From contig OZ316894.1 in assembly GCA_973895155.1 (NCBI GenBank), positions 14,089,680 to 14,153,679 of the forward strand: a DNA stretch of 64,000 nt, given 5' to 3'. Source of the stretch: Marsupella aquatica (lineage: Eukaryota; Plantae; Marchantiophyta). The notes beneath the pieces were generated by a model. The model made no database searches, had not been told where the DNA came from, and was given only the letters and a program-made list of their open reading frames with translations. The translations under genes and the position numbers were made by a program. This document shows positions 3,217 to 56,851 of this stretch, one piece after another (positions within the stretch are counted from its first letter, which is position 1; every line of letters begins with the position of its first letter).

Positions 3217-3556
3217 ATCTTCGAAAAGAAGCCCACCACAATTAAGAACTTTGGTATCTGGGTGAGGTATCAGAGTTGTACAGGTTATCCCAACATGTAC
3301 AAGAAATATTGTGATACCACATTAAACAACCACACAGCAGATGTATGATGAGATGGCTTCTTGTCATAGAGTTCGGTTCCCTTGCATCCAGATCATCAAG
3401 ACTACGACAGTCCCTGTCTCTCTGTGCAAGCGAGAAAGTACCAAGCAGTTCCATGATTCAAAGATCAAGTTCCCCTTGACGTACCGCAAGATTCAACCTC
3501 CATCGCGAAAGCTAAAGACGACTTACAAGGCCACCAAGCCCAACACATTTGTTTGA
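3217..3556 (+). pseudogene. RPL18a: Captured terminal exon of 60S ribosomal protein L18a (eL20), frameshifted
   Basis: After a CAG acceptor at 3214-3216 it reads [33 protein letters not shown], then after a frameshift near 3330 [61 protein letters not shown]. This is the conserved eL20 C-terminal half. No upstream exons are present. Confidence 0.9.
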
Positions 3557-8214: not shown

Positions 8215-8712
8215 AGCCACAATCACGACAGGGCCTGGATGGAGATGGGATATGTGGGAGAATTAGTTGACATATGGGCTCTGGACTATGGGGCGGTGTC
8301 CAGTCCTGTGATTCTTATGAAAGGTTCATGGGTGCGGCAGGATTGGCTTGGTAACAGGGCTACCATGAAGAGAGACAACGACGGTTTCTTGCTGGCCAAT
8401 TTCAGAGGGAAATTGCCCGAATGGTCTGAGCCATTTGTGTTTCCTAGTCAGGTGGAGCAAGCTTTCTTCCTGGATGTGGAAGACTCCCCAGGTTGGCGTG
8501 TAGTGTGTCATAAATAGGCCAGGCAACGTCGGATGGAAGGATCAAACCTTGAGTTTCATTTACACTCTCATAGTGCCTTTGATCGTCGGCGTTCAGACCA
8601 AGTGCCTGTAGTTCATGATAGCGGGGACTTCATTCCTGTGACAAGGGTAGATGCATTTGCTGAAGGAGGCGAATTCAGAGATGCAGATGCCAACAGTGTG
8701 CCTGTGCCATGA
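8215..8712 (+). pseudogene. 3' end of the CACTA transposase (TnpD, DUF4216 region) of element C, truncated by insertion A and carrying an in-frame stop
   Basis: WMEMGYVGELVDIWALDYG..PVILMKGSWV...RATMKRDNDGFLLANFR..PEWSEPFVFPSQVEQAFF aligns with 13123-13638. TAG at 8515-8517 replaces the Gln of VVCHSQARNRR, and the frame continues ARQRRMEGS. Confidence 0.85.
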
Positions 8713-9773
8713 GTAATGTGAATTGTTTGCATGGACATTAGTGAGGGGAAGGATGTGTAATAAAGTAATTCTGAAGCAACACAGATGTATGGATGGATGC
8801 CTGGTGATTGTGGTTGCATTGTGTTATACAGGGTGATCATAGATGACATGTTTTTGTGGTCCAGTAGGATGGAACAGAGTGACACAGAGATGTGTGAGTA
8901 TGAAAGGAAAGCTATGGAACAACGAGCATACGTGAAAGCCAAAATCGCAGAACACTAGTAGAAACCGGGGGGTATTTAGACCCCATTAAACGACTATTCA
9001 GTACCGTATAGGACTTGGAAACGACTGGGAAGGACTCTAGTCCTTTATAGGACTGTGAGTCGTATGTTTTGTTACTATAATCAACTGAGTCCTTTATAGA
9101 ACTGGTTTATAAGTCGTTTAATAGACTGGATTTTCAGTCTATTTTAGTCTTTGTGTGGGTAGTTTTGGTGAGTCGTTTTCAGTCTTTTATGGGCTGCGAT
9201 GATGAGTCGTTGGGAACGACTAAAAAGGTTATGGAGGGTAGTCTTTAAATATACTTTGTGGGGTATGTATAAGTCTTTCATGTCAACTGGATATGAGTGA
9301 TGAAGACCCCACTATACTACTTGGAATGAACCCACTCTTGTGCACAAATAATATATTGCATTCATGTTTTATTGTGTACTTGGAATGAACTCACTCTATA
9401 AGTTCACCATTCATCATGTTAACATTAGAATACATAGTTTCAGAAAGCCATCTTCTATACCATGTACACTAATATGAATTCACAGATTCAAACAGACTAC
9501 AAAGAAGGTCACAAAGTATTCCTCTATACCATACACACTAATACTGAAATGATAAAATAGATTCAAGTATCATAGACAATCACCATAGAGCCATAGTTTG
9601 ACATCAATCACTTGTTTCATACATACAGAATTCAGAAATATCAATGTCACACACAACGTCTCCTTCATCCTCTTTACCAAATGGAAAAATTGGTACAGAT
9701 ATTTCTTGGATCTTTCCAAGGCAATGTCAAAATGTGACACAATTCACATGATGCTATCTACACTTGCATTCAG

Positions 9774-12700
9774 TCACTGCAGACTAACACACTCTGATGG
9801 CCAGAGCACAAGAGATCCTACTGCATCTGCAATTATTTCCTGAGGTGGATCATCGTCTCTATTCGGAAATGGTAAATTACAATCAGATACAATCACTGTA
9901 GTCAACAACACTACTACATGGTCATCCGGGACCACTTTGCCATGGAATTTTGCATGATCCGGTCGCAAAATGCCTGTACCCACACATACCTGCGAGTCAT
10001 CCTCCCATGATAGAAGATTATGGACTGGCTCTGCTGTGGCTATCACCTCCACCTTACCCTGGCTGTTTTTCTTGGCTTTCCTGGGTGGCTTATACATGAC
10101 ATTATTCATACCTTGGTTGCGAGTCATGACTTTGGCACGAGTGTTTTGTGCTGGTGATCCAGAATTGGCTACACTCTTCTTCAAAGAATCTGCATCCATA
10201 TTTGACACTTCTGATTGTGTAGCAGGATTTCCCTGCGACATCATCTCAGTATCTGCCAACATTGTACTTGTTTCAATTGAAGCATCTACAATCTTACTTG
10301 CATCCAATGTTGCTCCCAAGTTTTGACGTCGCTTCACCCTACTCCCACTTGGTTGAGAGTCTGTCAACTCTGCATCAACTACAATTCAGTGTCATGTCCA
10401 ACATAAGTCAATCACTCATCACATGTGCTAAATGTACATGTCACCAACCACAAAGTTGTCACTATCTCCTTACCATTATGAACAGCCTTCTTCCCCTTCT
10501 TTGCCATTGCCATATGCTCCATGTCTGCTTTTGTTGATCAATAAACACACCACAATATTCAGGTTGAATCTATTAACCACTGAATTGTTGCTCAACATTC
10601 ATATAGAGGAATTTAAAGCATCAGCTTACCTGATACCTCCTTGGCTATGGTCACTGAGGCACTGGGCACATCTTCTTCATTATTGCTCTTTGAATCACCT
10701 GATACGTCAATCATGATGTCACTTCAGATCCCAGTTCATCCAACCAGTTCTTACAGAAAAGATTACCTCCAACCGGCTTAAGCTTCACAAAACTCCATGC
10801 ACTTTTCAAATGTAATGTATTGGATCATAGCAGGTTACCTGTCTCAGCAACCTTCTTGCCCTTCTGCTTACTGATTACAGGGTCCTTCTTTGCCTCCACT
10901 CTTCCTGCATTCAAACCATTCACTCAATTCATGAAAACTTACTTCTGACATTTGAACATAGGACACAATGAACAATGGGCCGATGTCATTTCCATACCTG
11001 TGTCAGATTTGCCAATTCCCTTTTTTGTTAACAAGGGCACACTTTGTACAATGTTGCCCTCATTGTTTGGTTGGGAACCACCCAATTTTTCAATCACAAG
11101 CTTGAAATTAGATTCCACTGATGCAAGAAGGTTCGCTATAGATGCCTCCACAATATCCAAACGATCAGCCAATTTACTTTCCACTCGAGGGAGTCCACAC
11201 TCTAATGACTTCAACCGTTCACACATCTCTGTGAGAGTTGTAACAGTTCCCTGTCATAACACAGCTTACATATCTCAGATAACTGTCCCCAAGAACTGGT
11301 TGCTTACTTCCTACTACAGTTCTTTCTGATGCTCAAGGCCAAATAGTCACAGAACATACATAATTACAACATAATCACCTGTTTGGAAGTTACACTTGTC
11401 ACCTCACTCCTTTGTTTCATGAACTCCTCTCTCACTTCTTGTGCTGATGGTTCTTCACCTGTCAATTTCTTCTGCAGTCCACATCAACATACATATGAAT
11501 GAAACCAAGTGTTGATTGTCAATGAAAATGTAATAATGGTAGCAAGATGATAAGTTTGAGGCTTACTATCAGGCATGTCACTGCCTTACCAATTGTTCTT
11601 TCACTGGAGCATAACTTCCTCTCCCAGCCTGTGAAAGGTGTTTCACTTTGCCTCGAGCATTTGACATCAGTTCACTCTTGCTCTGTCCAGCCTCCGACAT
11701 GAACCCTTTGATTAACCGTGTCCATTGATCCAGTTCCAATGATGGGGGTGGTGGCATTCTCCTGTTAGAACCATTGTCTATCCACATCCTTTTCAACCTA
11801 TGCCTCTCTTGTTTCAAAATCCTCATTGCATAATTTGATATGCAATCTTCAACTGGGCCCTTATCATCATTACCAACATACTCCCACCGTTCAAGAATGT
11901 CCTTGCAGATAGCAGCCCAATCAGCTTTGTTCTGACTCCTAAACTCTGTAATGCTCAAATCTAACCAACGCAATACTTCTCCTCTTAGGTCAGAATGCCA
12001 ACGGTTCTTACCATCACATGTGGGAGTTATCCAACCTTCGGAATTCACTTCTACTTTACCAAATTTGTTACTGTCTCCTGCCTTGGTACTCCCTGAAGCG
12101 CTACTAGGTGTCCCTCCACGGCCTGGTGTCCCCCCACGGCCTGGGGTCCCTCCACGGCCTGATCTCCCCCCACGGCCTGGATTGCATTGTCCAAACCTCC
12201 CTGGAGTCCCTGCACATGTACAAGATCCATTTACAGTCACTTACATTAGGTAAGTATGAATCATAAATCCCGCTGCCAAATATACAGTGGACTTCAGAGC
12301 AATTCTGCAATGACCAAGTTACCTCTCCCTTGGCGCATAGATGGTTCTGGACCACCTGTCCTATTGCTTTGTCTTGATGAATTAGGGGCGTTTCTCCCGC
12401 CTATGAATGATTGCCTCCTATCTGAATGTGGATGGCCTTTGTTGTTTTCGTGATTGTCCCAATCAGAGTCTGCATACCAACAGGTACATGCCACACTCAT
12501 GGACCTGTAAGATAAACTCTTTGCCCTAGCTACACATCAGATAAGTGCATATTGAGCTAAATCTCTACTACCATCACAAAATCACTAGCACAAGGCACTT
12601 ACTTGTCCAATCATCCTCCTCACCTTTCCATTGCCCTCTGTACCCGTCTCTACCACGCTCTGGGTGTTCATATTCATCCCATCCATCTTCTGCTCCATCA

Positions 12701-12945
12701 TAGTCATCATCATAATTATCAGGCGTCCCTTGCCAATAACTCTGGCTCCTTCTAGGGTATGGATTATGTGATTTCTCTCTAGCTGCCCACCTACCTGGGA
12801 CTTGATGAGGGCCCTGTGCATCTTGCACAAGTGCATTTTTCTGTGAGCCCCCTGCATCTGGGTCTCCATCCATATCCAATCTTTCCTCTTCACCCCACTC
12901 TCCAAGCCCCATGTCTGTCTCCATGTCATCACCCTCTTCCCCCAT
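9774..12945 (-). CDS. Multi-exon TnpA-like (CACTA ORF2) gene of element B
   Basis: Exon-like ORFs at 12574-12945 (acidic/Gly-rich), 11578-12240 (RGG repeats, then KNRWHSDLRGEVLRWLDLS...ERHRLKR..QWTRL), 10939-11226 (coiled coil) and 9774-10367 (FHGKVVPDDHVVV...LPFPNRDDDPPQ..DAVGSLVLWP, the En/Spm ORF2 C-terminal domain). They are separated by GT-AG introns and collinear with 26058-29680. Exact exon structure and integrity were not resolved. Confidence 0.7.
12107..12180 (-). repeat. 18-bp coding tandem repeat (PGRGGT)n, RGG-type low-complexity motif
   Basis: About four copies of CCACGGCCTGG(T/G)GTCCC encode PGRGGRSGRGGTPGRGGTPGRGGTP in ORF 11578-12240. Confidence 0.8.
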
Positions 12946-13122
12946 AGCTTCTGCACAGCACCCACAACCAAACAGGGAGAATCAGCACACTAAATTCAAA
13001 GTATCAATCAATTTCATGCATATCCAACTATCCTAAATATCATTCCAGGCAGCAATTCCCGTTATGTGACTCTGTGCAGGTAGTCATCCTCAACCTCATA
13101 CTTGCCAATCGCCAGCTGTTGC

Positions 13123-16100
13123 CTATTGCAAATCATCAACCTCATCATATTCCATTTGCCCAGGTTCATCATATGTCTCTCTCAATGTTAAGGGGATGTA
13201 GTCAGTCCCTGCCCGAGTTGGAAGTACAGTCTCATGACTAGGATGCTCGAATGCAGCATGGTCATCCAAACTGAACTCTACTTTACTTCCATCCATCCGC
13301 CTGTTCCGTGCTTGGCTATGGCATACCACCCTCCAGCCATGTGACTCCTCCACATCTGCAAAGAAAGCCTGTTCAACTTGGCTAGGGAAAACAAAAGGCT
13401 CAGACCATTCTGGTACTCTGGACCTAAAATTGGCCAACAAGAACCCATCATGATCACGCTTCATGGTGGCCCTTGGTCTCTGCCACTCTGATTTCACCCA
13501 TGATCCCTTCATCAATATCACTGGGACACTTGTGTTACCATAATTCAACACCCAAATGTCGGTCAACTCCCCCACGTAACCCATCTTCATCCACCCCCTC
13601 TGTTCTTCAGAGGTTCTCTGCTCAAACACAGAAATCAAACCACAATCATATGATACACAATGGTCACCCTACTCATCCCTCACTCGATAATGATTTCCAT
13701 AAGCTCTCATCCGTTTGTAGGTCAGAATAGACAATCGTGGTGGCACAGATAGAAGATACAAATCCTTCTCCATATCTGGGTGATGTCTACTATGCTCTCG
13801 AATTGTCACCCGAATCCACTGCTCGAACTGTGGGAAGGGATCCTGCTGCCCAGAGTGTGCAGCTTTTTGCATATCATATTCCCTGCATTATGAGGTACAG
13901 GCATAGTTAGGTCTAAACAACACATGACAACCTAAGATCACCCTTGGAACAGACAAGAAGCATCACAACAAAGGCAAGTCAATTCAATCACTCACCTCCA
14001 CCATGGTTGCATAGGCTCTGTGTTTGCCAGCACATATGAATGAGCCTTGTCTCGAATCGCAACAGGCAGCTGAACAGCACGTCCCACACCTTCAACAACC
14101 TCGCCACTCACTCCATCATCTTCACCAGATTTCCAAACTCTTGTCATAGCTTCACCAGACCCAGCCATGTACTCTGTTAGGAATCCCAACGTCTCATCCT
14201 TAATGTACCCCAATGCCATGGAAGCCTCTGGCCTGTAGTATGTTCTCACATGACCTTTCAACAACTTCATGTATCGCTCCATAGGGTACATCCATCTGGT
14301 ACTGACTGGCCCAGCCCTAGCTCTTCTACCACATGGATTAGGAGATGAGTCATAACATCAAAGAAAGCAGGGGGGAAGTATATCTCCAAGTCACAGAGGA
14401 CATAAGCAGCATCCTGCTTCAACTGCTCCAATCCTTGGGGATCCCACACTTTCACACATATACGGCGAAATACATTGCACAGTCAAAGAATGACATTACG
14501 GACTGGTTTCTGCATGAGACCTCTGAGGCATAGGGGCAGAATGTGCTGCATCAACACATGGTAGTCATGTGTTTTCATACTACCAAGTTTATTCTTTGTA
14601 ATATGCTTCTTGAAGGCACCAGCATAGCCAGAGGGCACTTTCAGACAGCTCAATCTATACAAGAATGTCTTCCATTCATCCTGTGTGCACACATAGGGAG
14701 CTTGGAACTTGAGAAGTACATTGGGATTGCTTGCATGGGGCTTCAACCAAAGGTGAGGGCGAATCCCCTTCTGTTGCATATCAGCTCGAACTGCTCCTGT
14801 ATCTTTCTCACCCGACAAGAACTTCAGCAAGCTCTCACAAATATTTTTCTCAATGTGCATGACGTCCACATTGTGTTTGCTGGGCTCGAATTCCTGCACT
14901 CCACAAAGCAAAGAATTCAACAACAGAAACACTAATTAACCACATAGGAGGATTGTAACCAACATCAATCCACCATTGCTCCAATCTAAAATTGCAATCA
15001 TACAGGGGCTGGAGGCTAAGTACATTACCCTCCAGTACTCCAACTCCAAGTCCATCAAGGTCTGTCTTTTCACACCGTGTTTCACCACTGGATCCTCAGG
15101 TTCTCGATCAGTGGCACTTCTCTTGTCCCAATCAGCCTTCCTGGCTGCCCACCTCAGGACTTGCTCTCTGGTGACCCTCTGTGGTGGGCCACGAAGCTCT
15201 GTTTTGTTGTTGAAGTGTGCAATTTGAGACCGTGTGTGCCTGTAAGGATGATCAACAGGCAGATACCTTCTATGCCCCTGAAATTTCATACTGTGCAGGG
15301 CATGCGACCACTCACTTGTCACATTTTTCCCACATGGTGTGCACCCCACATAGCCCTTTGTCACTCGTCCAGATATGATGCCATGGCCTGGGTAATCTGC
15401 TATATCCAGCAAACAAATTGCATGCAGTCTAAAGGGGCTGGGTCGAAGAAGCCCCTTCAGAACATCATGGGTTAACACCCCTTCTATCCACAAAGTCTTC
15501 CACTCTTCCACTGCTGGAGCCAACATGATATCTATGAATTGCTCGGTCACAGAAGCTGGTCCAGGGATTAACAGCACCATCATGACAAAAAACCTCTTTG
15601 TAGTCATCCATGGGGGAAGGTTGTAATTTAGCAGCGTAACCGGCCAACATGAATAACGGTTGTTTTTGTCTCCAAATGGGTTTACTCCATCCAGTGATAG
15701 ACCAAATCTAAAGTTCCGCTTCTCTGCAGCAAACTGTGGCCACCTCTCATCAACAAATTTCCAATGGTTGGAATCTCCAATGTGACGCTGCAGGCCATCA
15801 CTGCTCTTGTTATCAGGAGTCCATGTCATCAGCTTGGAAATGGCAGGGCATCTAAACAGACGTTGTAGTCTAGGAATGAGAGGAAAATGACGAAGAACCT
15901 TGGCAGGGTGTGTACATTTCCCTACATTCTTGTACCTGTGCTTACCACAATGAGGGCATGTCAATTTATCTGCATGCTCTTTGCGAAAGAGAACACACCC
16001 ATCAGGGCATGCGTCAATAGACACATAGTTCAGCCCAAGGTTAGACATCAATTTCCTAGCCTCGTACATATTTTTTGGAATTGAATTACCATCTGGTAAC

Positions 16101-16819
16101 ACATTTCGGCGCAGGAAGGTCAACAACTTTGTCACAAATATATTGGGAACATTGTGATTGCCACAGATGTTCAACAACAACACGACAAAACCCAGCTTGG
16201 AGCAGTTCGACCCCTCGTAGATAGGAATGCAAGCTTCTTTGATGTGTTTTGGGCCCCCAAACACCCACTCCCTCTCTGCTGCACCTTCCCCAATGTCAAA
16301 GTCAGGTTCAGCTTGGCCGTCGCCAATGTGTGGCTGCGGTTCATTGTCCTCTTCTAATTCCACTGTGTCGTAAAAAGCATCAAGGTCTTCAAAAATCTCT
16401 TGAACCATTCTTGGGACATCCATCCCACCGTCCTCAGTGACTGCCTCTCCATCTCCATCTTGGTCATCCACGTTCTCATGTTGGACCCCAGGACCATCCT
16501 CTGCACAGTCTATGTCCTGCTCTACGTAGTCTCTACGCCTAGCTGTATTAGAATCCACAAAGTCAGCTCTCCACTCTTCATCAGAGGAGTCTTCTTCTGC
16601 TGGTACATTCCAAACCCTCCACCGAGGGTGCCTTTCATGCCGCAGCAGGTGAAGGTGCACAGTGTTCAAACTCAACGACTTGAATCCTTGGCACTGTGTG
16701 CATGGGCATCTCATCCTCCTACTCCTACCTTGGGCGGCCCGTGCTTGTTCACGCATCCACAATTTAGAATCATGATGCCTAATCCTAAATGGGTTGTGAA
16801 GAGGCAACCTTGGAGCCAT
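13123..16819 (-). pseudogene. CACTA transposase (TnpD: N-terminal Zn motif, Transposase_21 core, DUF4218, DUF4216), 3 exons, inactivated
   Basis: Exons ~16819-15029, 14893-13996 and 13882-13123 with GT-AG junctions. Motifs: RCPCTQC, IDACPDGCVLF..CPHC, LSLDGVNPF, YNLPPW, DYPGHG, HNVDVMHIEKNICESL, KTHDYH, FFDVMTHLLIH, WMYPMERYMK. Lesions: TGA at 14483-14485 (likely CGA), a frameshift near 14312, and TAG at 13669-13671. Confidence 0.93.
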
Positions 16820-17145
16820 CACTATACACACGCACTCAGCACCCTGTCATTTTATTATGCAAGTGAAAAATACACTTCCTGTTAAGGATTTCACCCCCGA
16901 CTGTACTTGCCAAAATACGTAACGTTCCAAAAAAACAAAAAAACAAAAAATATAGGTGCCTGAGTCATGTACCTATTCTCAAGTGAATGAGACAAAATTC
17001 CTAAATGTTTGAGGGTGTCAACTCCTCCGCTGTCCTCACATGTACTGCCTCTGCACGTACATCCATGACCATATCAGAGTCCAATCATGTATAGTCATAG
17101 ACACAGGTGCCAGGTGCGAGACTGGTGTGAGATGTCCTCATCTTA

Positions 17146-17715
17146 CTACCACATCAAATACGGATACCAATCCTGTTGTCGATGCCACTCAGCCCTGAGG
17201 TACTCAGGCATGTACATTAAGTCATCAAGGTCTAAACCCTGCTCATGCCATGGTGGTCTTCGATCCGTGCCTACAAGTAGTGGCAGCAGTGCCCTCCATG
17301 GTGCACATGTTGCTACCAAGTCCCTCCACTGGGTACTAATTAGTCTATATTTGTAGATATCTTGTGCGCCAGACACCACAAGAACCCTCGGCTAGACATG
17401 TGTAAGAACTATATCATCTGCCAAATCAGGCAACAAGGAACCACCTACAGCATCATGCTTGTCTAACTCATCTGCTGAAAAGTAAATGTCCTCTTCCGAC
17501 TGTGCATCCTCATTCACCACAGCATTCACAACACATCCAAGATCTGCAGGCATTATCTCGGATGGAGCTACACTCTGTCTGGTTACCAATCCACACAAGT
17601 AAGCCCAAGCAGTAGCCATGCACGATGCAACCCGTAGGAGGACCCTACATAGGGCCTGACGGTCTGGAAGAGGCAGCATACCCACCAAAGTCTTCAGCCA
17701 AACAGAGCCCAGCAA
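17146..17715 (-). pseudogene. F-box protein, transposon cargo, one premature stop (likely TGG>TAG)
   Basis: ORFs 17392-17715 and 17146-17379 are in the same frame. Reading through the TAG at 17392-17394 gives SLLPDLADDIVLTHV(W)PRVLVVSGAQDIYKYRLISTQWRDLV, which matches the F-box consensus LP.LPDD......RV.......RLVS..WR.LV. Confidence 0.72.
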
Positions 17716-17855
17716 GTAGATTCACAGTCACACCCCACGCAGCAGGAAACAACAATCACTTCAACTGCGACCAACCATGACAAGATGAGTTAGTTCAAGG
17801 ATCACATTTATTACAAAATTGTGATTTATACAAAAATATGAGGGACTCCTACTCC

Positions 17856-18704
17856 TCACTCTCTCCCACCTTTGCTAAGCATACATCTCCGCTGAATCTT
17901 GGAGGGCCAGGCCTCAAAAATATCAAAGTCCCAAGCATTCTGTCGCTTCCCTCTAGCTGCTGATTCCAGAAGCCAATCAGGGGAAAGCACCCAAAGATTG
18001 TTGTTCATGACAAAATCACGCACTGTTGTCTTAAAGAATTTTCTGCATATTTTCATGTATGACAGACCTACAACATGAGTGGAGGTTTCTGTTAGACTCT
18101 CCTCCACTATCCCACCTAGCTCAACAACTATAGACTTGTACAATCTGCACTTAGTCTCCCCAATTCCTTCTTCTGCAAATACCACACTGAACCCCTTCAT
18201 AATGGTATTTCTCTCCTTGCCATGCTCATTCAATATAGCATCTGCACGCATAGGATGGTGTCCTATGTTGACAACAGGTCCATATTGGACAGAAGCAAAG
18301 TTGGGTTTCTCTGCCGCTGCTTCATAGGCTTCCTTTTCAGCCAAAGCCTCTGCAGTGGCCTCCTCACTCTCCCACAACTCATATTGCTCAGTACTCTGTA
18401 CACACCTATGTTTAACAGAATCGGTCAGCCAAGAGACTTCAACTACTTTTAGACCTTGGTTGGTAATGGCAGAATCAATGAAGGACCATGACCAGTTGTT
18501 CATCACATCCAGCCATGTCCCCGCAACAACATGTGTAGTCTGTGGAGTGATGTCCTTGACTTCAGTCCCATGGAACTCTGAGAATCGTTTTTGTACGATT
18601 GGCCAACTCACTTGGGTGAACCCATAGTGGCCAGGAATCAAAATGGCTTTGATTCCAGCCAACAGAGGCGGGTGGTCAACCTTTGTACGTTTCCTAGAGG
18701 CCAT
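17856..18704 (-). CDS. Tandem-BRCT protein (~282 aa), transposon cargo
   Basis: Intact ORF starting MASRKRTK (basic, NLS-like). Two BRCT repeats: LLAGIKAIL...HGTEVKDITPQTTHVVA...VVEVSWLTDSVKHR..STEQYEL and IMKGFSVVF...LGGIVEESLTETSTHVVG...VLSPDWLLESAARGKRQNAWDFDI. Both carry the THVV and W-L-x-[DE]-S signatures. Confidence 0.88.
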   Translation of the reverse strand: MASRKRTKVDHPPLLAGIKAILIPGHYGFTQVSWPIVQKRFSEFHGTEVKDITPQTTHVVAGTWLDVMNNWSWSFIDSAITNQGLKVVEVSWLTDSVKHRCVQSTEQYELWESEEATAEALAEKEAYEAAAEKPNFASVQYGPVVNIGHHPMRADAILNEHGKERNTIMKGFSVVFAEEGIGETKCRLYKSIVVELGGIVEESLTETSTHVVGLSYMKICRKFFKTTVRDFVMNNNLWVLSPDWLLESAARGKRQNAWDFDIFEAWPSKIQRRCMLSKGGRE

Positions 18705-19302
18705 GTACACACGGGCCACCTAATCACTGCAGACCGGAAGATAATGCGTTCACCTGATAATCGGAGGGCCCTTAAAATGCTGCGTTTATAACTTGGTCCA
18801 GTCCAGTCGTCTGGTGAGTCTCTGCTCCGATTCCAAACGGGAGAAATATTGGGACAAACGTACTAGACACCTGCAAGCATGCACCTCATAGTTTGAATAT
18901 GTGCCTTGACAATATTGAAGGTGACAAGTGCAATTGTTTTGTGATGCCACATACAGATGTTGTAAATGGGCAGACATTCAATGAGAATAGAAAATGTTGG
19001 TACACTTTAAGGGAATTCTTGCAAATTAAATAGCCTTGTAACTTATATGCTCATAATGAGAAGTCCTGATTTAATTTAAGCAGTGTCATGTAAGTCGTGA
19101 TCAAAATGATTGCAGAGTTAAAAAAGTTCCTAGAAGGCTTAAGGGGAGTTTTTGAAGGCATGTACCCAGGAACAAGTAATGAACTTAGGGTACTTGTTGC
19201 CTAAGCATCCTCTCCTACAGAGGTCCTTCTTCTCAAAATTGGAATGTCTGCAATCTCCAAGGTATCCACATCAGGTGCACTATGCATGTACATTATTCAG
19301 GT

Positions 19303-19983
19303 TCAAAGCCAAGAAATGTGATCTCTCATGGGAGTGTGCAAAGTAGGATCTATGGCATGGCGATGACAATAGAAGATCCATCGATCAACACCATGTGCAG
19401 AGTGATGATAGATGTGTCTGTCACAAGCATAGCCTTCTGCTTGACGCTCCTTCAAACAATGAAAGTGCCACATGGTGGGACACCTAACACAGTGGACTAT
19501 GTCCACCCAGAAATCTTCATCGTGCTGACCACATGCCTTGCACTTATGAAGTGGGCAAGCTGTGGCAAGATCGGGCAAACATGAAAAACAAAAGAACCTC
19601 ACACAATATCTGTCAGGGCATTTCCTAACAAGTGGTGGAGCATCAACAGAGCCCTCATAAGACCCCAACTTCCCACACTGTGCACACTTAGCCTGCTTCT
19701 CCAAACAATCAGTGCACATCCAGCCTCCCTGGTGTGCTGACGGGAGGCCCACCCCTGGACAGTTGTTTTCTGCAGCAAGGTCAGACTCCGGGTTGAGGTG
19801 GAAATGCCTCATGCAAGGGCCCTCACATATGGCTAAGCCACCACCATCGTCACAAATGGCACAACAATGAGCTGCCTTCTGGAAAATCTGACTTGCGGAG
19901 AAGTTACTACCATCTGGCCCAACTACACCTGTGTTGCTCACCTCTGTCCCCCGCTTCTTGGCTCGGATTTTAGGGCGTGCCAT
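19303..19983 (-). CDS. Stand-alone EDM2-type multi-PHD zinc-finger protein (226 aa), transposon cargo, copy B
   Basis: Intact and the same length as 321-1001. I count about 31 substitutions in 226 aa with all Cys retained. It has the same EDM2-like motif order, ending IFYCHRHAIDPTLHTPMRDHI. Confidence 0.88.
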   Translation of the reverse strand: MARPKIRAKKRGTEVSNTGVVGPDGSNFSASQIFQKAAHCCAICDDGGGLAICEGPCMRHFHLNPESDLAAENNCPGVGLPSAHQGGWMCTDCLEKQAKCAQCGKLGSYEGSVDAPPLVRKCPDRYCVRFFCFSCLPDLATACPLHKCKACGQHDEDFWVDIVHCVRCPTMWHFHCLKERQAEGYACDRHIYHHSAHGVDRWIFYCHRHAIDPTLHTPMRDHISWL

Positions 19984-20652
19984 GCCTACGCCTGAGACAA
20001 ATAGTACAATTTAGTAGAGTGCACAGACAATACAATTTAGTGCAGTGTACAAAAAGTACAGTGTAGCATATAGACTAGAGTGGCAATTGCTACTGCAATG
20101 AAATGTTCACACACATGTGCAGAGTAGACATACTTTTTGGTTTGTTGAGCCCACACTAAAAACTGATCCCCTCGTACAATAGCTCCACCTACACCTCAAT
20201 TTTGTGGCTATGATTCACCAAAGGAGATCTGCAACAAGATTTAATGCATTTGAATCACATATAACAGTCGTGACATGTAAAACAGGCATTTTTTGAACAG
20301 GATTGGTATCAAGCAGTGTGATCAGGGTTGTAATTTATACATCCTAAATAGGCTATGATAGTGAATGAGACAAATAAGTTAGGCATAAATCACTTTTTCC
20401 AGGTTATCACATGGCCCATTAATTCCAGTCTTTGAAAGGAGACTTTTAAGTGAGCTTGCTAGCCTCTTAATTTAGGATATTGTACTTAGTGCAGCCATAA
20501 TAGGATAAGTTATGTACTGTTGACCGTAAACCCTGGACCCAAAATTGCTCATAATTCAAAATCTTAAGTAAATATCCTCTCTGTTCTAGTCAAAGTGTTA
20601 AGTTATAGGTCAATCGTCTCTGGTCTGTGCATGCGGTGTGACAAGTGGTCTT

Positions 20653-21102
20653 CTACAGCGTGTGATCCAAACATGTGTAGACACCAAAGTGACCGGTGGT
20701 GGGGTCTGGGAGGGCAGGACAAGTGACATCGCCAGGCGCACTGCAGGATGGCGAGTGGTTCCAGATGATACATTGTGCTCTGTGAAAAAACCGACATCCA
20801 AGAGAACGGTCATCCAACTCTAGGCCAGAAGCCCTACAGGCAGGACAGTCATACTGGCAACTGTGCACACACCCTTGGGCCCTAATTTGTGGTGGGTCAT
20901 GTACAAGAGACAAAAATACCAAGGATGTTGGGAAGGATGGAGAAGCAGGTACAGGGCGGCTGTAGTTATTCCTGGCAACAACTGGGTACTCAAAGTACCA
21001 TGCAGATTGGGCTGGAAGGATCCCAAGTCTGACATACTCAAGGCGCAACATCTCTGCCTTGTGTGCAAGCCGCACATGTTCAGCATTGCGGGTCCTCACC
21101 AT
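20653..21102 (-). CDS. Cys/His-rich 149-aa PHD-like protein, transposon cargo, copy B
   Basis: ATG at 21102 (MVRTRNAEHV); collinear with 1772-2221, same length and stop position. Confidence 0.7.
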   Translation of the reverse strand: MVRTRNAEHVRLAHKAEMLRLEYVRLGILPAQSAWYFEYPVVARNNYSRPVPASPSFPTSLVFLSLVHDPPQIRAQGCVHSCQYDCPACRASGLELDDRSLGCRFFHRAQCIIWNHSPSCSAPGDVTCPALPDPTTGHFGVYTCLDHTL

Positions 21103-21486
21103 AAGTGTTGCTTTTGTGGAGTGTCGTGTGTTCACGTCCTCTGATAAGCACCTTCGATCAGCAAGGTGAGCAGGAGCTGTACTTGCCTCACCAACAGCAA
21201 CCAACCTTAAATTATCAGTTCCCACTCACTGTGTCATTCCATTGGTTCCAGCTAGGGGTCACAATGTAAACATAGCATGAAACACTCCTAATCAACTTGC
21301 TTACAAACTACAATATCCAGAAAGAGTGAAAGTCTCACCCTCCAGTGAGCAGCAGAGAGGTAGTTCACTGGATGTGTTGATGTGCAGTTAAACCTCCACT
21401 ATTGCTTACTTCCGGTGTATGCTGCTCAGTCGGAGACATATTAGTAGCAGCAAATTGCAAATAATGGCCATAAGCAAACCGTGAGA

Positions 21487-21958
21487 GTACTCAAAGTACC
21501 ATGCAGATTGGGCTGGAAGAATCCCCAGTCTGACATACTCAAGGCGCAACATCTCTGCCTTGCGTGCAAGCCACACATGTTCAGCGTTGCGGGTCCTCAC
21601 CATAAATGTTGCTTTTGTTGTGATGTCCTCTGTTCACGTCCTTTGATGAGCAAGGCGAGCAGGAGGTCGACTTGCCTTGCCCACAACAACCAACCTGCAC
21701 TTATCAGCTCCCACTCACTAAATTGGTTCCAACTACAGGTCACAATATACACATAGCATGAAAGGTGCATAGCACATATTTGATGCTAAGTTCCTGAGAC
21801 AAAGAGCATGTATATAAAACCATGTTCTCCATGGACATGTACATAAATCATATTTGGATCCTGTTTTTTCATCCAGAAAGATCGAAAGTCTCACCTTGCA
21901 GGTTGCAGCAAAGAGAAAACTCACTGGTTGTCGTGTTGTGCAAGTGAACCTCCACTGA
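21487..21958 (-). pseudogene. Truncated duplicate of the 5' part and leader of the Cys-rich cargo gene
   Basis: Encodes MVRTRNAEHVWLARKAEMLRLEYVRLGILPAQSAWYFEY and then breaks off. The upstream sequence is nearly identical to 2107-2570. Confidence 0.8.
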
Positions 21959-24900
21959 GGTGGCAGAAAGCAGACAAAGCTTCAGGAAGATGGGAAAGAT
22001 GATCCTCGCCCATCATCCCCTATAAAATCTGCACATAGGACGGACGCCCGGGGACATTTATCATGAAAATTGAAGATCCATTCGACAACTCCATGACAGC
22101 CTATTCCGCATTGTGTCCGCCCCATGCAAGCGAGGGGTGTTCAGCCGAGCTTAGTCTAACCATGAATGATTGTTCTGGAAGCAGTTGCGACAATGTTTTG
22201 GTTTTTTTCTCCTATCCAACTCAATAGCTCACAAACATGGCATTGGACCCATTAACAAATTATACTTGCCATCATTCTCAACTGTATTACATGGCCCACA
22301 CTGCTAACGTCCCTGACTCTTAAGGGAAACTCATCTCCTGGGCCAGCAACATCTCAGATTCTACAAAAATGAGAAACTGTGAAGACTTCTTGAACTCCTA
22401 TCCTGTGACTGTAGCATGTATGATTTGCTGGGACTGCAGGCAGTTCTGGATCCTGTTGCGGTTTATATACAGCAGCAACCTGAGCTCCATGAATTTGTTT
22501 TTAATAGACATGCGTTTGACCACGGCTACAACTCCAAAACAATCACCAAATCAAATCATAACAAAACCCACTCGAAAGCTGAACACTAGAACACTGGAAC
22601 ACACTCAAACAGGTTCTGCAAGGATGGCTCTCTGTCGGATCGGCTAGAGAATCAGGCAGGCTTCCTATTACGGTCTGCTCAAAGCCTTACACTCTGGATT
22701 AGACTCTGAATCCAAACGCGAGTCTACGCTTTCCGTTGCTGGTCACAGCGACGGGCAATCAGGATGATGCCATGCCGAGTAGAAGAACAAGAAAGCATTC
22801 CATAAAAGGCACTGAGATGAACCGTATAGTAAAAGTGGTAGTACTTCTGGTAGCGCGACCGACTCGCTATGTGACAGTCCGGAAAAAAGCTGAAAGGCTG
22901 AACTTAGGCGATAGATTCCGTGCTCAATGTGACAGGTTTTTTGAAATGATCAAGCCAAGGTGCAAAGGAAAACTGATTGAAGGTGGCATGGGAAAGTTGT
23001 CAATGCAGGAGAAACTCTTGCCTTAGAGTAACCTTGTAACCAGGTAACAATGCAGGAGAAACTCTTGCCTTAGAGTGCTCGACGCTCCTTCAGCTGGATA
23101 GGGGCAGCTCCAAGTACACGGTCTGGTCCAATCACCGCCTGCTTTGTTACAAGAAGGTGGACTAAGCCACAGCTGACGTCAATCATGCTATAAAAAATGG
23201 ACAGATGAGCCGTGCACAGTAAAAAATGGACAGATGAGCCGTGTCACGGAAGCATATAGTCATTCCTCAATATTAAACGAGACTATGAGAGGGCATATAT
23301 AAGTTCACGACCAGGAAAGAGTCTCACCTTGCAGCACGGAGATTCTCAAAGCGCACCAAGATGAGTCCTTGTAGCAGGTGAATGTTGGGCGGTGTCATGT
23401 AAGGCGCAAATCAATAGCTCGCTACCTCCTATCTCCCCGTTTGTCTCCCGTGCACTTCTACCTCCCCGTCCGACTTCCCGTCTGTCTCCCACGTACTTAA
23501 ATTGAAGTTTTAACAAAAACTATCAACACCAAGTGCAGCAAATGCCAACATATTCACATTGCAGAGCATAAAAGTAGTCACAGTTCATGAATCAGTTCCC
23601 TATCGAATCATGGGCACTACGCCGAGCACTGCGCAAGAGACTGGGATAGACACTGCAAACATGGGGACTTTTGTTTGGCAAGAAATCTGGACATCAAACC
23701 TTCAGCAGCGGCAACGGGAAGCATTACATCAGACGAGTGGACATCAAATGAGCAGTCCAATTATAGGCAAACGGCGACTGACATAGAAGAGGGAAAAAAT
23801 GTGCATTGACATAGCGGACATGCGCGCATTGACATAGCGGAGGGGAGCAAAACTACATAAGCCAAGTGACCTTTTTAAGGCCCACAATTTCAAGGGGAGG
23901 GACAAAGAGAGCAAGCACTCCAATCTCTTCAATCCCTTTCGCAAGTAGCCGCCGAAATCTACTTCTTGGGGTCCAGCCCACGGATGTAGATCATGCAAGG
24001 TGGTCAATCACAGTAAGTGTAATCACTACGCCGAGCACTGCGCAAGAGATTGGGACAGAGACTGCAAACATGGGGACTCACAGGCAAGAAATCTGGACAT
24101 CAAACCTTCAGCAGCGATCGATGGGCCTTAATTCACAGGTCGCCCGGCTCGGTCCCTTGTTGCAGCTCGCCCAGCTCCACAACACCATAGACAAGGAGTT
24201 TGCAGGTCCAGTTTCCACCACGCAGCGTTAGCAAAACAAAAATGCTTGATCTTCGCCCTCCGCCCTCTGCCCTTTGCCCGAACCCCAAAATATCACAAGC
24301 GCAGCTCCAACGTCCAACCGGCAACCCTCCCCCGAGCTTTGTTAGACAAAAATCAGCACAGCACAACTGAGCTCGACGGAAATAAGCTCAGCACCCACCG
24401 CAGCTGAACAAAGCTCACACAAGAGCTCATACGGGAGCTCACTGTGGGAGTAAAAGAAAAATAGGAGGGCCGATGGCAGCCCGCAACTCCCACACCCTGC
24501 TCCTTCACAACTCTGGCGAGCTCCTTTGCAACTCCAATGCAAACTACTATCCACAATTGTAAATGCACATCGATCAGCCAAACCTAAACCCTCCCACTGA
24601 GCTCAGACTCCCGCGCAACACTCCCGCAGTAGCACTCCTGCAACAACACATTGCACAGCACTCCCGCAGCACATTGCACATCCTCCCGCAACACTTTGCA
24701 CAGCGCTCCCGCAGCTCCTGGAGACCTGATTGAAGCCTTGATTGCACACTCTTGAGGCAAAACAGCAGCGCAACCTTGCTAAACCCCTTGACCCTCTCGC
24801 CCTAAACGCTGAGTGGCAGACACTAACCGCAACATTCAACGTTGAGCCTCGATACTTTATGAGAAAAGTAAAACACGACTGAAAGGCGCGAGGGTGAAAA

Positions 24901-25199
24901 GGGTGCAAAGAGCCGTTTGGCGCCAACCTTACTATGACATGGCAGCCCCTAGAGTGATCTCAGCCATCCGGATGAAAAGAGATTGCCTTGAGTGATCTCG
25001 ACCATCAATATGCAGGTTTCATGTTAACCCCAGGCCCCCATTCCCTCTACTTCAAGTGTCTAAATTAATTACACTCCAAGCCTTGTCTAGCCCCTAAAAA
25101 ACTAGTGCTAAGTCATGACTACTCGGCCTTCTCAAAGTATAGCCCAGCTGAGTAAACTTCCAATATGCGACTTTTTGATGGTGGGGATCGATGGACTCC

Positions 25200-25700
25200 A
25201 TCCAATGGTCCCTAAACCCCCCATCCCCTTAACCCTAAACCCCCCACCCTTGACATCTCAACCCTCCACCCTTGACATATAAACCCCCCTAAACCCCCTT
25301 TAGTGAAAACTCAGCCACCCCCACACCTTGACATATAAACCCCCTAAATGTCTTGACAACTCGACTGTGGCCAGACTGTTTTTGCAATGCCACGGGCCGT
25401 TTTAGAGCGCCGCTTGCAAGCTCAGGATCAATGAAGCATGTTGCCTCCAGCTCTCCAAATCCTCCCAAGGCAGCAAACAAGTTAGGGTCCACGGTCCCTG
25501 TTCGTTTACCCTAAATCGCTGCGTCACTATTTCAATTGAGTGTTCTCTGACCCTAAACCCCCTTTACTGACCCCCACCCCCTTGAGACATAACCGGCCCA
25601 CCCTTGGCATATAAACCCCCCTAAACCCCTTTAGTGGTGAACCCCCACACCCTTCGCATGTAACTGGCCCACCCTTGAGCCCTAAGCCCCCCCAAACCCA
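25200..25700. repeat. Degenerate C-rich / telomere-like (CCCTAAA) subterminal repeat block of element B
   Basis: Repeated CCCTAAACCCC and CCTTGACATATAAACCCCCTAAA units, e.g. near 25210, 25233, 25270-25297, 25325-25348, 25551 and 25602-25630. Confidence 0.75.
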
Positions 25701-26057
25701 CTATGGAGTATATTCAAAATTAGGGAATTTCAACATTTACGCCGTTTGTCCGTGTTCAAGTTAGCGGGATGTTGGTAAAGAGGTTGTCAAATGAATTGTG
25801 CCCCCCCCCATATGCCCATTATCAAATTAAAGCCCACAACTAAACCCTACAACCCATCATGTGCTAGAGTGTTCATACATTCACAAAGAAGGGTACTTTT
25901 CATAGTCTTATCCAAAACCAAAAAGCACTCACAGTCTTTTGTAGTGTTCATGTGAACCGTGGCAATGGTTTCGAGTCATTTAAGGTTGCCAAAAAGGACT
26001 TAGTGGCCTTAGTCCTATAAGGTTTGGTCTAAATTGCCCCGGTTTCTACTAGTGGAA

Positions 26058-29000
26058 CTGGATCTGGAAAAGGATGTGGCTGAATTGTAAGGGAACGATT
26101 CTCAACTACACCCCTCCGCTGAGTTTGTGTGACATGAATAGTTCAATGTGGCACTGAAATTGTGACTGTATTCTCATATTGGAATGTCGCAGAGCCACAG
26201 CATTTTCAAAGAAACAAAAGGAGTACGCAAGAAGGGTGACCAGCATTATCTCTGGGCCTGTGCGTCGGAGTGACAGGTTGAGCAAGAAGGTCGTACCTAC
26301 AATGGCAGAATGTGGAGATGACATTGATGCTGCACAGGTGGGTGCAGACACTAGACAAGAAGATGCAGATGATGAGTATTTTCCAGAGGAAATGGATGAG
26401 GATGGGGGTTATGAAGATGAATACATTGCAGAGCAGCCCCAAAAGAAACAGGTAAGTAGTTTTCCCAACAAGGTTTTGAGTTAAAAACTCTTGTTTAGAG
26501 GTTTCATATGTTCAGTACTACACATATGTACCTTGCTTAGTTCCTGACATTGTAGTTGGTGATGTGATGCAGTGTCCTGCCAGTTCTATTTTGCCTTCGA
26601 AGCCTGTGCATGCACCATACCAGCAGGGGGGGCTGACCTCTGATCAAGGTTGGCGAGGTGGTAGTAGTGGTAGATCCCAGGCTGGTGCCCAATACTATGG
26701 CAGGGGGCAAGCTCTAGGTTATGCCCGTGGTAGAGGCAGAGCAGGTCCAAACCCACAATCTCGTGGGTATGGACGTCCACCTCAACCATGGGGATGTGAG
26801 TATATATCTATATGCCAGTTCTTTGTGAAGGCATGGCACTCCTGAATTTCAGACTGCATATCAATTTTTGACATTGTTTGGGATGTATTGGATTCAGACA
26901 ACATGAAATTCTGTCCACCTGCCATTGCATGCAGATTCTGCCCAACCTGATTGGGCAAATGCTAGTAATGATCAGTTCCAATGTCCACAAGGACAGACAT
27001 GGGTTGAACCAGGTTGGGAGGATGGTGGTGGGTCGTGGAATGAACAAGGTTGGGAAGGTGGTGAAGGTAATTGGCAGGGATATCAAAATTCAGTACCTAC
27101 AAACGCTGGAAGAGGGGCAGGTAATGTCTGATCTTGTCAGCAATGGAAGAACTCATTATATCTGGAGTCCATTCACGTGGGTGGGACTCTGCACATGTAT
27201 AATGATAGAAAATGTATGTGTGCAGGTTGGACAGTCGAACCATCGACTCAAGTATTCACTAATGCCCCTATGCAGATGCAGCACGGAAGGGGGACAGGTA
27301 TGTTGGTGAATGTTCAGTTGTTTTCCTACAGTTTGTACTTAGTTTTCAGTACATATGTTTGCACACACATACCTAGAAAGTGACATCATCCGGCCCCTGT
27401 ACTAGGCTGGACAGGTGGTCCAGGGTCGCAACAATTTCAGAGTGCAGTCCCTGCACAGGCATCTACAGGCAGAGCTACAGGTATGTATGTTTGAAGAATT
27501 TTTCTTGAAGTGAAGCATTGAATGTTGCCGTCATCCATTCTGCTATATGTAGTTCTCAAGCATGAATGGCATTGTATTTTCCCAGGTGGCTTCAGAACCC
27601 CAGGTAGGGTGAATGAAGGGGTGGCCAATACAACGCCCAGTACTACAGAGAGCAGTGCACGAGGGGAGGTGACAAAGAAAGGGAACGTAAAGTTGAATGA
27701 GAGACAATGGGTGGATGCTGAGTGTCCTCGCAAGAACCGATGGCATGCTGATTTGAAAGCTGAAGTATTGCGTTGGTTAGATGTGAGTGTTATTAATTTT
27801 AAAAAACAGCATCCAAAAGATTGGAAGACTGTATGTGAAAATGTTGTTGCCAAATGGAATTATGTGGGCAGTGATGATGGCGTGGACATAGGTTGCCTAG
27901 AGAGTACAGCAGGTAAAATCATCAAGCAAGAGAGGTGGAGAGTGCATAAGGCTTGGAAGGAAGGTGGGGAGAAGCCAGATATGCCTCCACCAGCCAGTTG
28001 TGATGATAAAGTGTGGGCAAGGTTAGTAGTTTATTTTGTAACAGATGCTTCAAAAAAGAAGAGTTCACAGATGACCGAGGCCAGGTTGAGTGTTCAGAAC
28101 CCTAATCTGACAGGAAGGACCGGCACTACACCGACAGCTAAACGTTTGGTAAGAATGAATGGCCTAGCTATGTAATTTATGCTACACTATGTACTGTTTT
28201 TTAGTGTAAACCCATACATGTAAACTTTGTTTTTTAGTGTACGTTCCCTGAATATTGATCGATAACTTGTGTTTGCCATGCATGTGCAGAAAGCCCAATT
28301 GGGGCAAAGCCCTTCAAAAGAAGAGTTGAGGGCTGAAATTGTGAACACCCGGGCTCAAGAGGGTGCATCTGAATCCTCCAAGCATGTAAGTTATATGAGT
28401 TCTGATTGGTAATTGAATGACCTGCGTTGAATTTCAGGTGTACACTGTATATAACATTGATTGTGCATATATTGCCCAACATTTCATATGGAGTGATTGA
28501 ACCTATACCCCTGTGTCATGTAGGGAGGTGGATCTTCACTTACAGAGATAAGTGGTCATTTGAAGGCTGTCGAAACATGTCTTCCAGAGATCAATGAACG
28601 TTTGAATTCATTGACTGACTTGTTCCATGTGAACTTCAAGACATTAATGGAAGCTGTTGTGTCGGTGAGAGATAAAATTGATTCCAATTCTGCAGGAGTT
28701 CCACCATCACCACTTGAGGTGGCAAAGTTGATGCACTCTTCTGGCATGCCAACGACATGTAGGCTTGAAGGTAAGGCCTTTACAACTGTGTGGGATATGA
28801 TTATTAAATGTATAGTTTGAATTGACATTGTTTGTCGAATGTGTTATTTTCAGTAACATATATTGTGGTTGATGTGTCCATAGAGAATAAGACAGGTGCT
28901 ACAGAGAAGAAGTATGAGAACCTGGCAAATACTCGCTGTAATTTAGAGGCAACAAAGTTGCAGTCTGTACAAGCAACTTGTTTGACAGAGGGCAGTCAAC

Positions 29001-29680
29001 CATGTTTGGATGAGGATGACATTGGCAAGGGAGTGGATGATATCAATGTTGGGGCAAATGAGGATATCAGCAAGCATGACAATGATACCATTGAGCCAGA
29101 TTCATGCTATGTAGATCTTGACTCCATTGCAGAGATAAATGATTTGCAGAATGTATCATTCTCAATGACAGGTGTGCCTCTTGTTGAGATAAATCCAACC
29201 AAAGAGTTAGTTGGTATGACACTCCTAGGTGATCAACCTGCTACTGTGACAGTCCTAACAGAGGAACCTACTGAGCCTAGCTTCACTACTGTGAAGAGAG
29301 GAAGCATGCGCACACGAAGCAAGCCTGCTAGTGGGAGCAGAGCCACGTCAAAGGTTTCATACAAACCTCCAAGAACGGTGCTGGCAGAAAGATCTAAGGT
29401 GGAAGTGGGGAAAGCACCTAATGCTGAGGGACAAAGTGGCTTGTTAGCTCTTGATGAGAGTGGAACACGAGTAGGATTTGGCAGAGTGCAGGTTGGTTCC
29501 ACAACGTTCCATGGCAAGAGGATTCCCCCAGGTTATTCAGTAGTGTTAGTCACATTACTAGTGAAACCTAAAGCTGTCCTTCCCATTCCAAACACAAATG
29601 ATGATCCTCCTCAAAAGACACTTGGAGATGCTGCAGGTTCTTTGGTATTATGGCCAAGCAAGTTCATAGAGGATCCATAA
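26058..29680 (+). pseudogene. TnpA-like (ORF2) gene of element C, first exon (8869-8952) disrupted by element B
   Basis: Exon-like ORFs at 26179-26484, 27522-28175 (KNRWHADLKAEVLRWLDVS...KQERWR..WARL), 28560-28820 and 28832-29680 (FHGKRIPPGYSVV..LPIPNTNDDPPQKTLGDAAGSLVLWP). They are homologous to 9774-12240. Confidence 0.78.
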
Positions 29681-31075
29681 CAATGTCATGTCATTATTTG
29701 TTTGTAGTGTGAGTCATGTTATGTAGATTTTAGATGTCAAGAAGCAGTACAAGAATCATGTCCTCTTGGAGATTCATAGTATCATGCATGTGCTTTCAGT
29801 TATCTCATCCTGCAGTCATCAATTATGAGTTCCTGTTTTGTCTGAATTACATTGATCACATTGTAAACTATTCCATTGGAATTCAAATGATCTTCATTTT
29901 TTAGCAAGATTGTGATTGTGTTTAATTCTTATGAATGTTTTATGTAGGATCTGCTTATATGATGCTTTGTTTCATGTGGATGTCATTCATGCTATGTTCA
30001 TTTCTTGTATTGAATGTGTTATATTTCTAAAGTTAGAACATCAGTGTTTCTATGTATTGTAATGTCGAGTGCTCTCTCTCCTTATGAACTGTCCCTCTGT
30101 GTTCATTAGTCATGGTTATAACTTGCATGTGAACCTTATTAGTTATAAACATGAGTATATAGAGTCCCAAATGGTTCTATTGTGTGACGCGGGCCAGGGT
30201 CTCCATTGGTCTCTCCTGTGACACTAAATGGTCACACACTAGTCGTTGTTGAATGCGGGTAAGTCATGCATGTGACTTACGATGTGACTCGCTGAAGTCA
30301 TATTGCAGTCACGTCGAAACAAGGCTAGACTCCACAATAAAGTCACAGATCAGTCACAAATGGGTATCAAGCAAGTTGCAAAGCCCAGTATCAATAGTGA
30401 CTACCATTTTTTGGTCTCAACTTTTGCAACTCCAAGGGTCACAGCGTGGGTCAAGTCACGTTGAGTCACAATGAAGTCACATGAGCCAAAATGAGTCACA
30501 TATTGCGGTCTCAGTTCACCTCGGATTCTTCTAGTGACGCACTCCCAAAGGACACAACCTGCTAAACTTTGAGACATGGTCATCTAAACACTATAATATA
30601 TATTCCTGCTATTTCTTTCTCAGTTATGTCATTTTGACGGGAAGCTTCCTTGGACGCTCAATTAAGGTGACATATTTCCTCACCATGAGATGGGCCTGTA
30701 GGTGTCATTGCACACCTTTTCCGCACCCTGCCCCTCACTCTCCCCACAGCTCGCACACTCCTTGAAATCCAGCTGCCAAGCTGACTGGTTGACTCTTTGC
30801 GGCATCTGACAGATTGGCTATCTCAAGTATGCTTGACAACATTTCCACTCAACATCACTTACTATTGAAATACTCTGAAAACCCACAAGCATTCAACTAC
30901 TTTTAGATGTTATTACACTGCCCTAGAATGAAAGGCGCCAAACCTTGAGACATGATCCTCTACAATGACTATCTTACGGTCACAGCGTATTATCATTCTT
31001 ATGGAAATAAGTTTTAGGGATTATGAATGTGATAGTCCAAAACTGCACAGGTGTTTACTATACTGCAGCCCTCTG

Positions 31076-56760: not shown

Positions 56761-56851
56761 AAGACAAATAATTAGGGAGAAAGGCAATATTCAAAATATA
56801 AATTAAAGGAAACAAAAGTGAAAAGAGAGACACTAAGGCAAAGCAAAGATT

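Follow-up and report, generated by a model that had tools for sequence, protein, structure and literature searches.

The 64,000-nucleotide window analysed here (contig OZ316894.1, positions 14,089,680 to 14,153,679; coordinates below count from its first letter) contains a ~17-kb CACTA transposon, element B (8953–26054, all genes on the minus strand), in which four additional open reading frames (ORFs) lie upstream of the transposase gene TnpD. Element B carries at least two maintained accessory genes, with a third being probable, and one of them encodes an EDM2-derived reader. Purifying selection on two of the genes, for a protein made of PHD fingers only and for a Cys/His-rich protein of no known family, is supported by comparison with a second element, A. 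The explanation preferred here, with a probability of about 45%, is that a CACTA lineage keeps the EDM2-derived PHD gene and the Cys/His gene, with the PHD protein reading histone tails on the lineage's silenced copies.

Element B is a CACTA element. Its terminal inverted repeats (TIRs) are perfect, with 18 of 18 terminal bases matching, and a GAA target-site duplication is present on both sides (duplication 8950–8952 and 3' TIR 8953–8970; 5' TIR 26037–26054 with the duplication reaching 26057). The TIR motif occurs nine times in the window, against 0.8 expected. Short subterminal repeats follow the 3' end (8971–9350, with enriched 6-mers and a tandem array at 9088–9139) and recur at the 5' end (25212–25703), so that CACTA TIRs, a 3-bp target duplication and subterminal repeats are found together. 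The gene order from the 5' end is a remnant of a Cys/His duplicate, Cys/His, PHD, BRCT, F-box-like, TnpD and TnpA-like. The four cargo ORFs are co-oriented with TnpD, three of them being open and the F-box-like one containing a single in-frame stop. A preliminary description of this DNA had claimed perfect TIRs, four compact co-oriented ORFs upstream of the transposase, three of them intact beside a transposase with three lesions, and two intact again in element A, and the mapped coordinates agree with it on each point. It had also called the ORFs intronless, which is true of the coding sequence, although sites resembling splice donors and acceptors occur upstream and suggest that the leaders are spliced.

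The PHD ORF (19303–19983, 226 aa) and the Cys/His ORF (20653–21102, 149 aa) are intact in element B and recur intact, at the same lengths, in the same order and also on the minus strand, in element A (321–1001 and 1772–2221, respectively). Element A is cut by the window start and ends at 8214 (5' terminal repeat at 8200–8214, minus strand; the other end lies beyond the window), and it has the stretch 19033–21228 of element B in common at 83%. Amino-acid identity between the two elements is 86% for the PHD protein and 91% for the Cys/His protein. For the PHD ORF, synonymous divergence (dS) is 0.27 and nonsynonymous divergence (dN) 0.07, giving a dN/dS of 0.27 (95% bootstrap interval 0.16–0.44, Fisher p 2e-7); for the Cys/His ORF, a dS of 0.18 and a dN of 0.05 give 0.25 (0.10–0.59, p 2e-4). 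Shifted-frame controls yield 0.69–1.78, and the dN values are below the non-coding divergence of 0.14 and 0.28. All 21 indels of the shared block fall within its 1065 non-coding bases and none within its 1131 coding bases. At the non-coding substitution rate, the chance of remaining free of stops would be 0.06 for the PHD ORF and 0.24 for the Cys/His ORF. Because of the low dN/dS values and the lack of internal indels, the two ORFs are not decaying Pack-type captures. The preliminary description had regarded a ratio near 1 as adverse to its proposal of a maintained module, and the ratios found in this one pair of elements are far lower. Maintenance is thus supported for PHD and Cys/His, and for the BRCT gene it is plausible.

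The PHD ORF is a derivative of EDM2 but not a member of that family, since the full EDM2 architecture is not present. In Pfam it matches three NSD-type PHD models below the cut-off, whereas a profile search returned 565 proteins at E<=0.001; among the 150 matches listed, the long named ones that were looked up are EDM2 or EDM2-like proteins of liverworts, lycophytes, ferns and flowering plants. Its whole PHD module aligns to residues 225–432 of Arabidopsis EDM2 (29% identity, E 4e-25) and keeps the zinc ligands, with a shortened second finger in which a His is replaced by Cys. The acidic stretch before PHD1 of EDM2 is replaced by a basic tail, and the further N- and C-terminal domains of EDM2 are lost. 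The domain label given in the preliminary description is therefore confirmed for this ORF, by profile search and EDM2 alignment, as it is for the two-BRCT ORF by Pfam.

Among 115 candidates, five whole relatives of the PHD ORF were found (217–245 aa, 38–81% identity), and either of two signatures of this compact type occurs in 20 of 156 proteins, two of which were put aside as host-type. In a tree of 23 rows, all eight compact PHD rows form one clade with a support of 100/100, apart from the 15 host-type rows. The clade is deep, its internal branches measuring about one change per site, and the compact relatives presumably also sit in transposons. A quick tree places the compact PHDs with liverwort EDM2-like paralogs (support 98), but on a long branch, and the alternative grouping with EDM2 proper is not rejected (approximately unbiased (AU) test, p 0.10), so that the donor paralog is not fixed. 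A simple recent capture is unlikely, because the nearest named host proteins are only ~30% identical. A metagenome scan yielded nine loci, all of them host EDM2-type matches (25–46%) on contigs of 1–4.6 kb, which are uninformative on gene order. A strong splice-donor-like motif follows codon 14 of the PHD ORF in both B (19943) and A (961), and splicing from there could join the basic N-terminal tail to ORFs lying further downstream.

EDM2 is reported to bind H3K9me2 at transposons and to promote full-length transcripts through heterochromatin (PMC7529245, PMC10241880), where, together with ASI1/IBM2 and AIPP1, it suppresses early polyadenylation (PMC7529245, PMC10241880, PMC9292364). A PHD reader encoded by the transposon and placed on its silenced copies would shield their chromatin from host readers or aid the long transcript of the element. 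Since the protein has no effector domain, its part would have to be that of a competitor or adaptor. The cargo genes would have been taken long ago from host genes and kept because copies having them transpose more often, while single copies such as element B would decay after insertion. The BRCT pair, probably the third maintained gene, would act on the repair of the excision break, for which a weak similarity to DNA ligase 4 is the lead.

Several observations weigh against the proposal that the lineage maintains its own histone reader. The dN/dS values of 0.27 and 0.25 come from the single pair of elements A and B and from a simple method that can understate the ratio. Cargo and transposase are both strongly CpG-depleted (0.25–0.36), and the family has therefore not escaped methylation. 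With other residues in front of PHD1 and a shorter second finger, the module may bind histones differently or no longer at all. The stand-alone PHD relatives are no more than presumed to lie in transposons, and short PHD-only EDM2-like genes have also been named as host genes in grasses and Marchantia. EDM2 itself is described as acting in opposite directions on different transposons (PMC3632883). Neither the Cys/His ORF nor the F-box-like one matches a Pfam family, and among the contigs listed from other copies none links the cargo to TnpD. The CHG content was considered as a sign of anti-silencing and rejected, as it does not differ from that of a long interspersed nuclear element (LINE) in the window. 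The short PHD-only EDM2-like genes of grasses and Marchantia (P0029, P0046, P0052, P0055, P0058) fall outside the compact clade.

The Cys/His ORF had been called PHD-like in the preliminary description, an identity that was rejected: no Cys4-His-Cys3 profile match was obtained, and profile comparison with the PHD alignment gave a probability of 0.1%. No solved structure matches it, an Atlas search gave no usable match, and none of the 54 pattern matches of a viral scan with its alignment proved to be related. A set of 18 candidates contained a single outside relative, with 53% identity. The AlphaFold models are poor for both the Cys/His protein and the BRCT protein, with predicted local distance difference test (pLDDT) scores of 40 and 33, respectively. 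Upstream (21484–21958, minus strand) lies an incomplete tandem copy of the beginning of the Cys/His gene and its leader, the two having 39 codons in common.

The two-BRCT ORF (17856–18704, minus strand, 282 aa) is intact and matches Pfam BRCT in two stretches (E 2e-13), which are separated by a linker of ~58 residues. Its maintenance is made plausible by two intact 294-aa proteins in one cluster, the representative of which is 61% identical. The best solved relative is the BRCT domain of DNA ligase 4 (E 0.004, weak), while matches to BRCA1-type phosphopeptide-binding tandem BRCTs are weak as well (E 0.04–0.3), and the Atlas search returned only generic BRCT clusters, scoring under 0.9. The fourth ORF (17146–17679, minus strand, 177 codons, stop at 17392–17394) may encode an F-box adaptor. 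Its residues ~82–121 resemble, by eye, what we take to be the start of plant F-box domains, a likeness that is unconfirmed: no Pfam family was found for either of the two pieces (E<=0.1) or for the read-through (E<=0.05), and the F-box label of the preliminary description is left without confirmation. Of the four domain labels one was rejected and one is unconfirmed, and a linker of ~58 residues separates the BRCT domains; the functionally coherent module, a four-part story of chromatin, repair and ubiquitin, is therefore a hypothesis.

Other copies of the family were sought in sequencing runs. Of 13 runs listed, 11, from nine studies, hold part of the cargo stretch and four hold more than half, two organisms being represented; no RNA run is among the 13, which has no bearing on expression. 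Alignment of four runs to the whole of element B gave 5,869, 14,030, 707 and 196 contigs, covering 30, 30, 30 and 28 of 30 bins; the variant contigs of the two richest runs (5,869 and 14,030) cover all 30 bins in the two organisms. In these two runs, cargo, TnpD and TnpA-like bins have similar summed depths, and the 5' region falls 12- to 32-fold below them, although summed depth does not equal copy number and the runs were selected by cargo content. This is a hint that the family is large and that its core stays constant while its 5' end varies. In element B, the variable region (22100–26036, minus strand) extends over ~4 kb without long ORFs, has low summed depth in other copies and, by self-comparison, is absent from element A. 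Among the 40 rows listed of 1,023, the cargo shows seven differences, six of which change the protein, as expected for the decay of a single inserted copy.

The variable 5' region also underlies a less likely alternative, according to which the ORFs were gained singly at this end and have no joint function: PHD and Cys/His would each be useful, while BRCT and the F-box-like ORF would be passengers or have small roles of their own. The 5' region behaves as a capture zone, being wholly different in A and B, and element A contains a broken host fragment encoding ribosomal protein L18a (3205–3556, plus strand; Pfam Ribosomal_L18A E 1e-5, two frames with stops). This fragment, on the strand opposite to the genes of element A, is an ordinary decaying capture and contrasts with the intact cargo. 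The evidence for selection is limited to PHD and Cys/His, and in some copies a 43-base skip at 17470–17514 lies inside the F-box-like ORF and counts against its maintenance. On the other hand, BRCT is an intact ORF for which complete relatives exist at 61%, the stop in the F-box-like ORF is private to element B (all listed depth in four of four runs reads a sense codon there), and contigs cover both the BRCT and the F-box-like ORFs in all four runs aligned.

Somewhat less likely is that the PHD protein serves as a targeting factor, which would anchor the TnpA/TnpD complex in heterochromatin and thereby steer new copies into repeats, where they do the host the least harm. An older plus-strand CACTA element, C, has been hit by A as well as by B, at positions 738 bases apart, and reader domains in transposons are described as setting insertion preference (10.1101/2021.11.30.470311). 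These are, however, only two insertions at one locus, nesting is also expected from the survival of insertions in gene-poor DNA, and the known targeting readers are fused to an integrase or transposase, whereas the PHD of element B is a separate ORF. The piece of element C between A and B (8215–8952, plus strand) is the end of its TnpD, 62% identical to the last TnpD exon of element B, and the element continues at 26058–30536 (plus strand) with TnpA-like exons and a TIR at 30525–30536. The two insertions within an older CACTA element may reflect a preference for inserting into its own kind.

An extension of the preferred explanation appears unlikely: the cargo as a virus-like kit of stand-alone genes, with an EDM2-derived reader whose N-terminus mimics a histone, a ligase-4-like BRCT pair steering repair of the excision break, an adaptor of the Skp1–Cullin–F-box (SCF) type for the removal of a host factor, and a zinc-binding protein of a new kind, by which the family would amplify despite silencing. 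Across four distant compact rows, identity is 88% at residues 2–5 of the PHD ORF, compared with 14% at residues 6–30, and the sequence after Met, Ala-Arg-x-Lys, has what we take to be the spacing of the histone H3 tail. The same start is found, however, in three of 133 other hits, all short grass-type EDM2-like proteins, and the N-terminus is therefore possibly a mere nuclear-import signal.

Selection on behalf of the host is very improbable, either in functional host paralogs until a recent capture or in copies that now serve the host. Short PHD-only EDM2-like host genes do exist and the donor paralog is not fixed, but the A/B divergence spans the shared spacers and a shared position in two different CACTA elements, and the simplest reading is therefore that it built up within the transposon. 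Equally improbable is a neutral Pack-CACTA-type capture, with fragments of host genes still intact because they are recent: CACTA elements are reported to capture host DNA (PMC13317346), but a synonymous divergence of 0.18–0.27 with dN/dS near 0.25, the absence of coding indels, the low chance of remaining stop-free and the distance from named host proteins largely refute it for PHD and Cys/His.

The transposase of element B is of the CACTA/En-Spm type. TnpD (13123–16819, minus strand) retains Transposase_21 (Pfam E 1e-59), DUF4218, DUF4216 and Transpos_assoc despite its three lesions, namely stops at 14483–14485 and 13669–13671 and a frameshift near 14311–14326; two further interruptions, 15028–14894 and 13995–13883, are GT-AG introns and not lesions. 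The TnpA-like gene (9774–12981, minus strand) has several exons, which are 39–41% identical to the matching exons of element C, and its match to Transposase_24 is weak and below the cut-off in both elements (E 0.014 in B, 0.002 in C). To judge by the nearest named PHD relatives, the host is likely a land plant without seeds, perhaps a liverwort. TnpA-like exons are present at 11578–12240 and 27522–28172 in this probably non-flowering host; in a 2026 preprint, TnpA-like proteins are called apparently restricted to flowering plants (10.64898/2026.08.24.746577).

The remainder of the window contains a further CACTA element of 4.65 kb (36229–40877). It has related TIRs and a target duplication of TTT, contains a TnpA-like remnant (36570–36740) and is likely non-autonomous. 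In a largely intact LINE (44639–49348), the ORFs for endonuclease, reverse transcriptase and zf-RVT are spread over several frames, and a further zf-RVT remnant lies at 42041–42430. A host gene on the minus strand (52700–55289) encodes a nucleoplasmin-like domain (Pfam NPL) and is probably FKBP53-like; a TIR-like motif at 54806 was rejected as an element end, as it falls in the coding frame of this gene. A purine-rich 19-bp tandem array of ~30 copies (56150–56764) is adjoined by probable long terminal repeat retrotransposon remnants, recognised by eye (59100–63500). No Rfam family was found in the 64,000-nucleotide window.

Known cases of plant DNA transposons that retain genes of host origin to their own advantage are few; VANC/KIU and TnpA are examples. 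If the explanation preferred here is true, a high-copy CACTA family turns a host anti-silencing part, the EDM2 reader module with its role in polymerase read-through of heterochromatin, to its own use, and cargo for coping with host silencing would represent a new kind of transposon accessory kit. The family offers a concrete test case for whether anti-silencing cargo explains transposon amplification. Its PHD protein, small and free of effector domains, is suited to testing what the EDM2 PHD module does alone, and the Cys/His protein is conserved and selected while matching no known family. Among the papers listed by a literature search, none describes EDM2-type PHD or BRCT cargo in a CACTA element, although Repbase and preprint supplements, which were outside the search, may list such ORFs. 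'Various accessory proteins' are referred to in a survey of 962 Spm-encoded structures, with no PHD, BRCT or F-box term in its main text (10.64898/2026.08.24.746577), and no passage with these terms was found in PMC13547354.

Element B resembles CACTA/En-Spm elements in its TIRs, 3-bp duplication, subterminal repeats, TnpD domain set and putative TnpA-like gene, and differs from them by the four extra ORFs upstream of TnpD. Pack-CACTA and Pack-MULE elements likewise hold host-derived sequence inside their TIRs, and the L18a fragment in element A is such a capture; in element B, by contrast, the transposase genes are kept, the cargo ORFs are whole and far from named host genes, and PHD and Cys/His are selected. 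With EDM2 and EDM2-like proteins (AAE complex), the PHD ORF shares the whole PHD module and the kept zinc ligands, but it lacks the N-terminal RFD-like, the methyltransferase-like and the proline-rich domains and sits in a transposon. Transposon–reader fusions with chromodomains or PHDs also recruit a histone reader (10.1101/2021.11.30.470311), which is joined to transposon domains there, whereas in element B it is a separate ORF among further cargo. A transposon accessory role has a precedent in TnpA, as described in the same preprint on Spm-encoded structures (10.64898/2026.08.24.746577). The anti-silencing protein VANC of VANDAL elements, including the Ulp1-carrying KIU with its captured host domain, is reported as an accessory gene kept by a plant DNA transposon (PMC13317346, PMC10398659), and in this respect it is alike. 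VANC, however, binds DNA motifs in tandem repeats and is encoded by Mu-like VANDAL elements of another superfamily, while element B is a CACTA element and the product in question a predicted histone reader. The analogy with VANC drawn in the preliminary description is one of logic only, and the role of binding DNA motifs would already be filled in element B by its TnpA-like gene.

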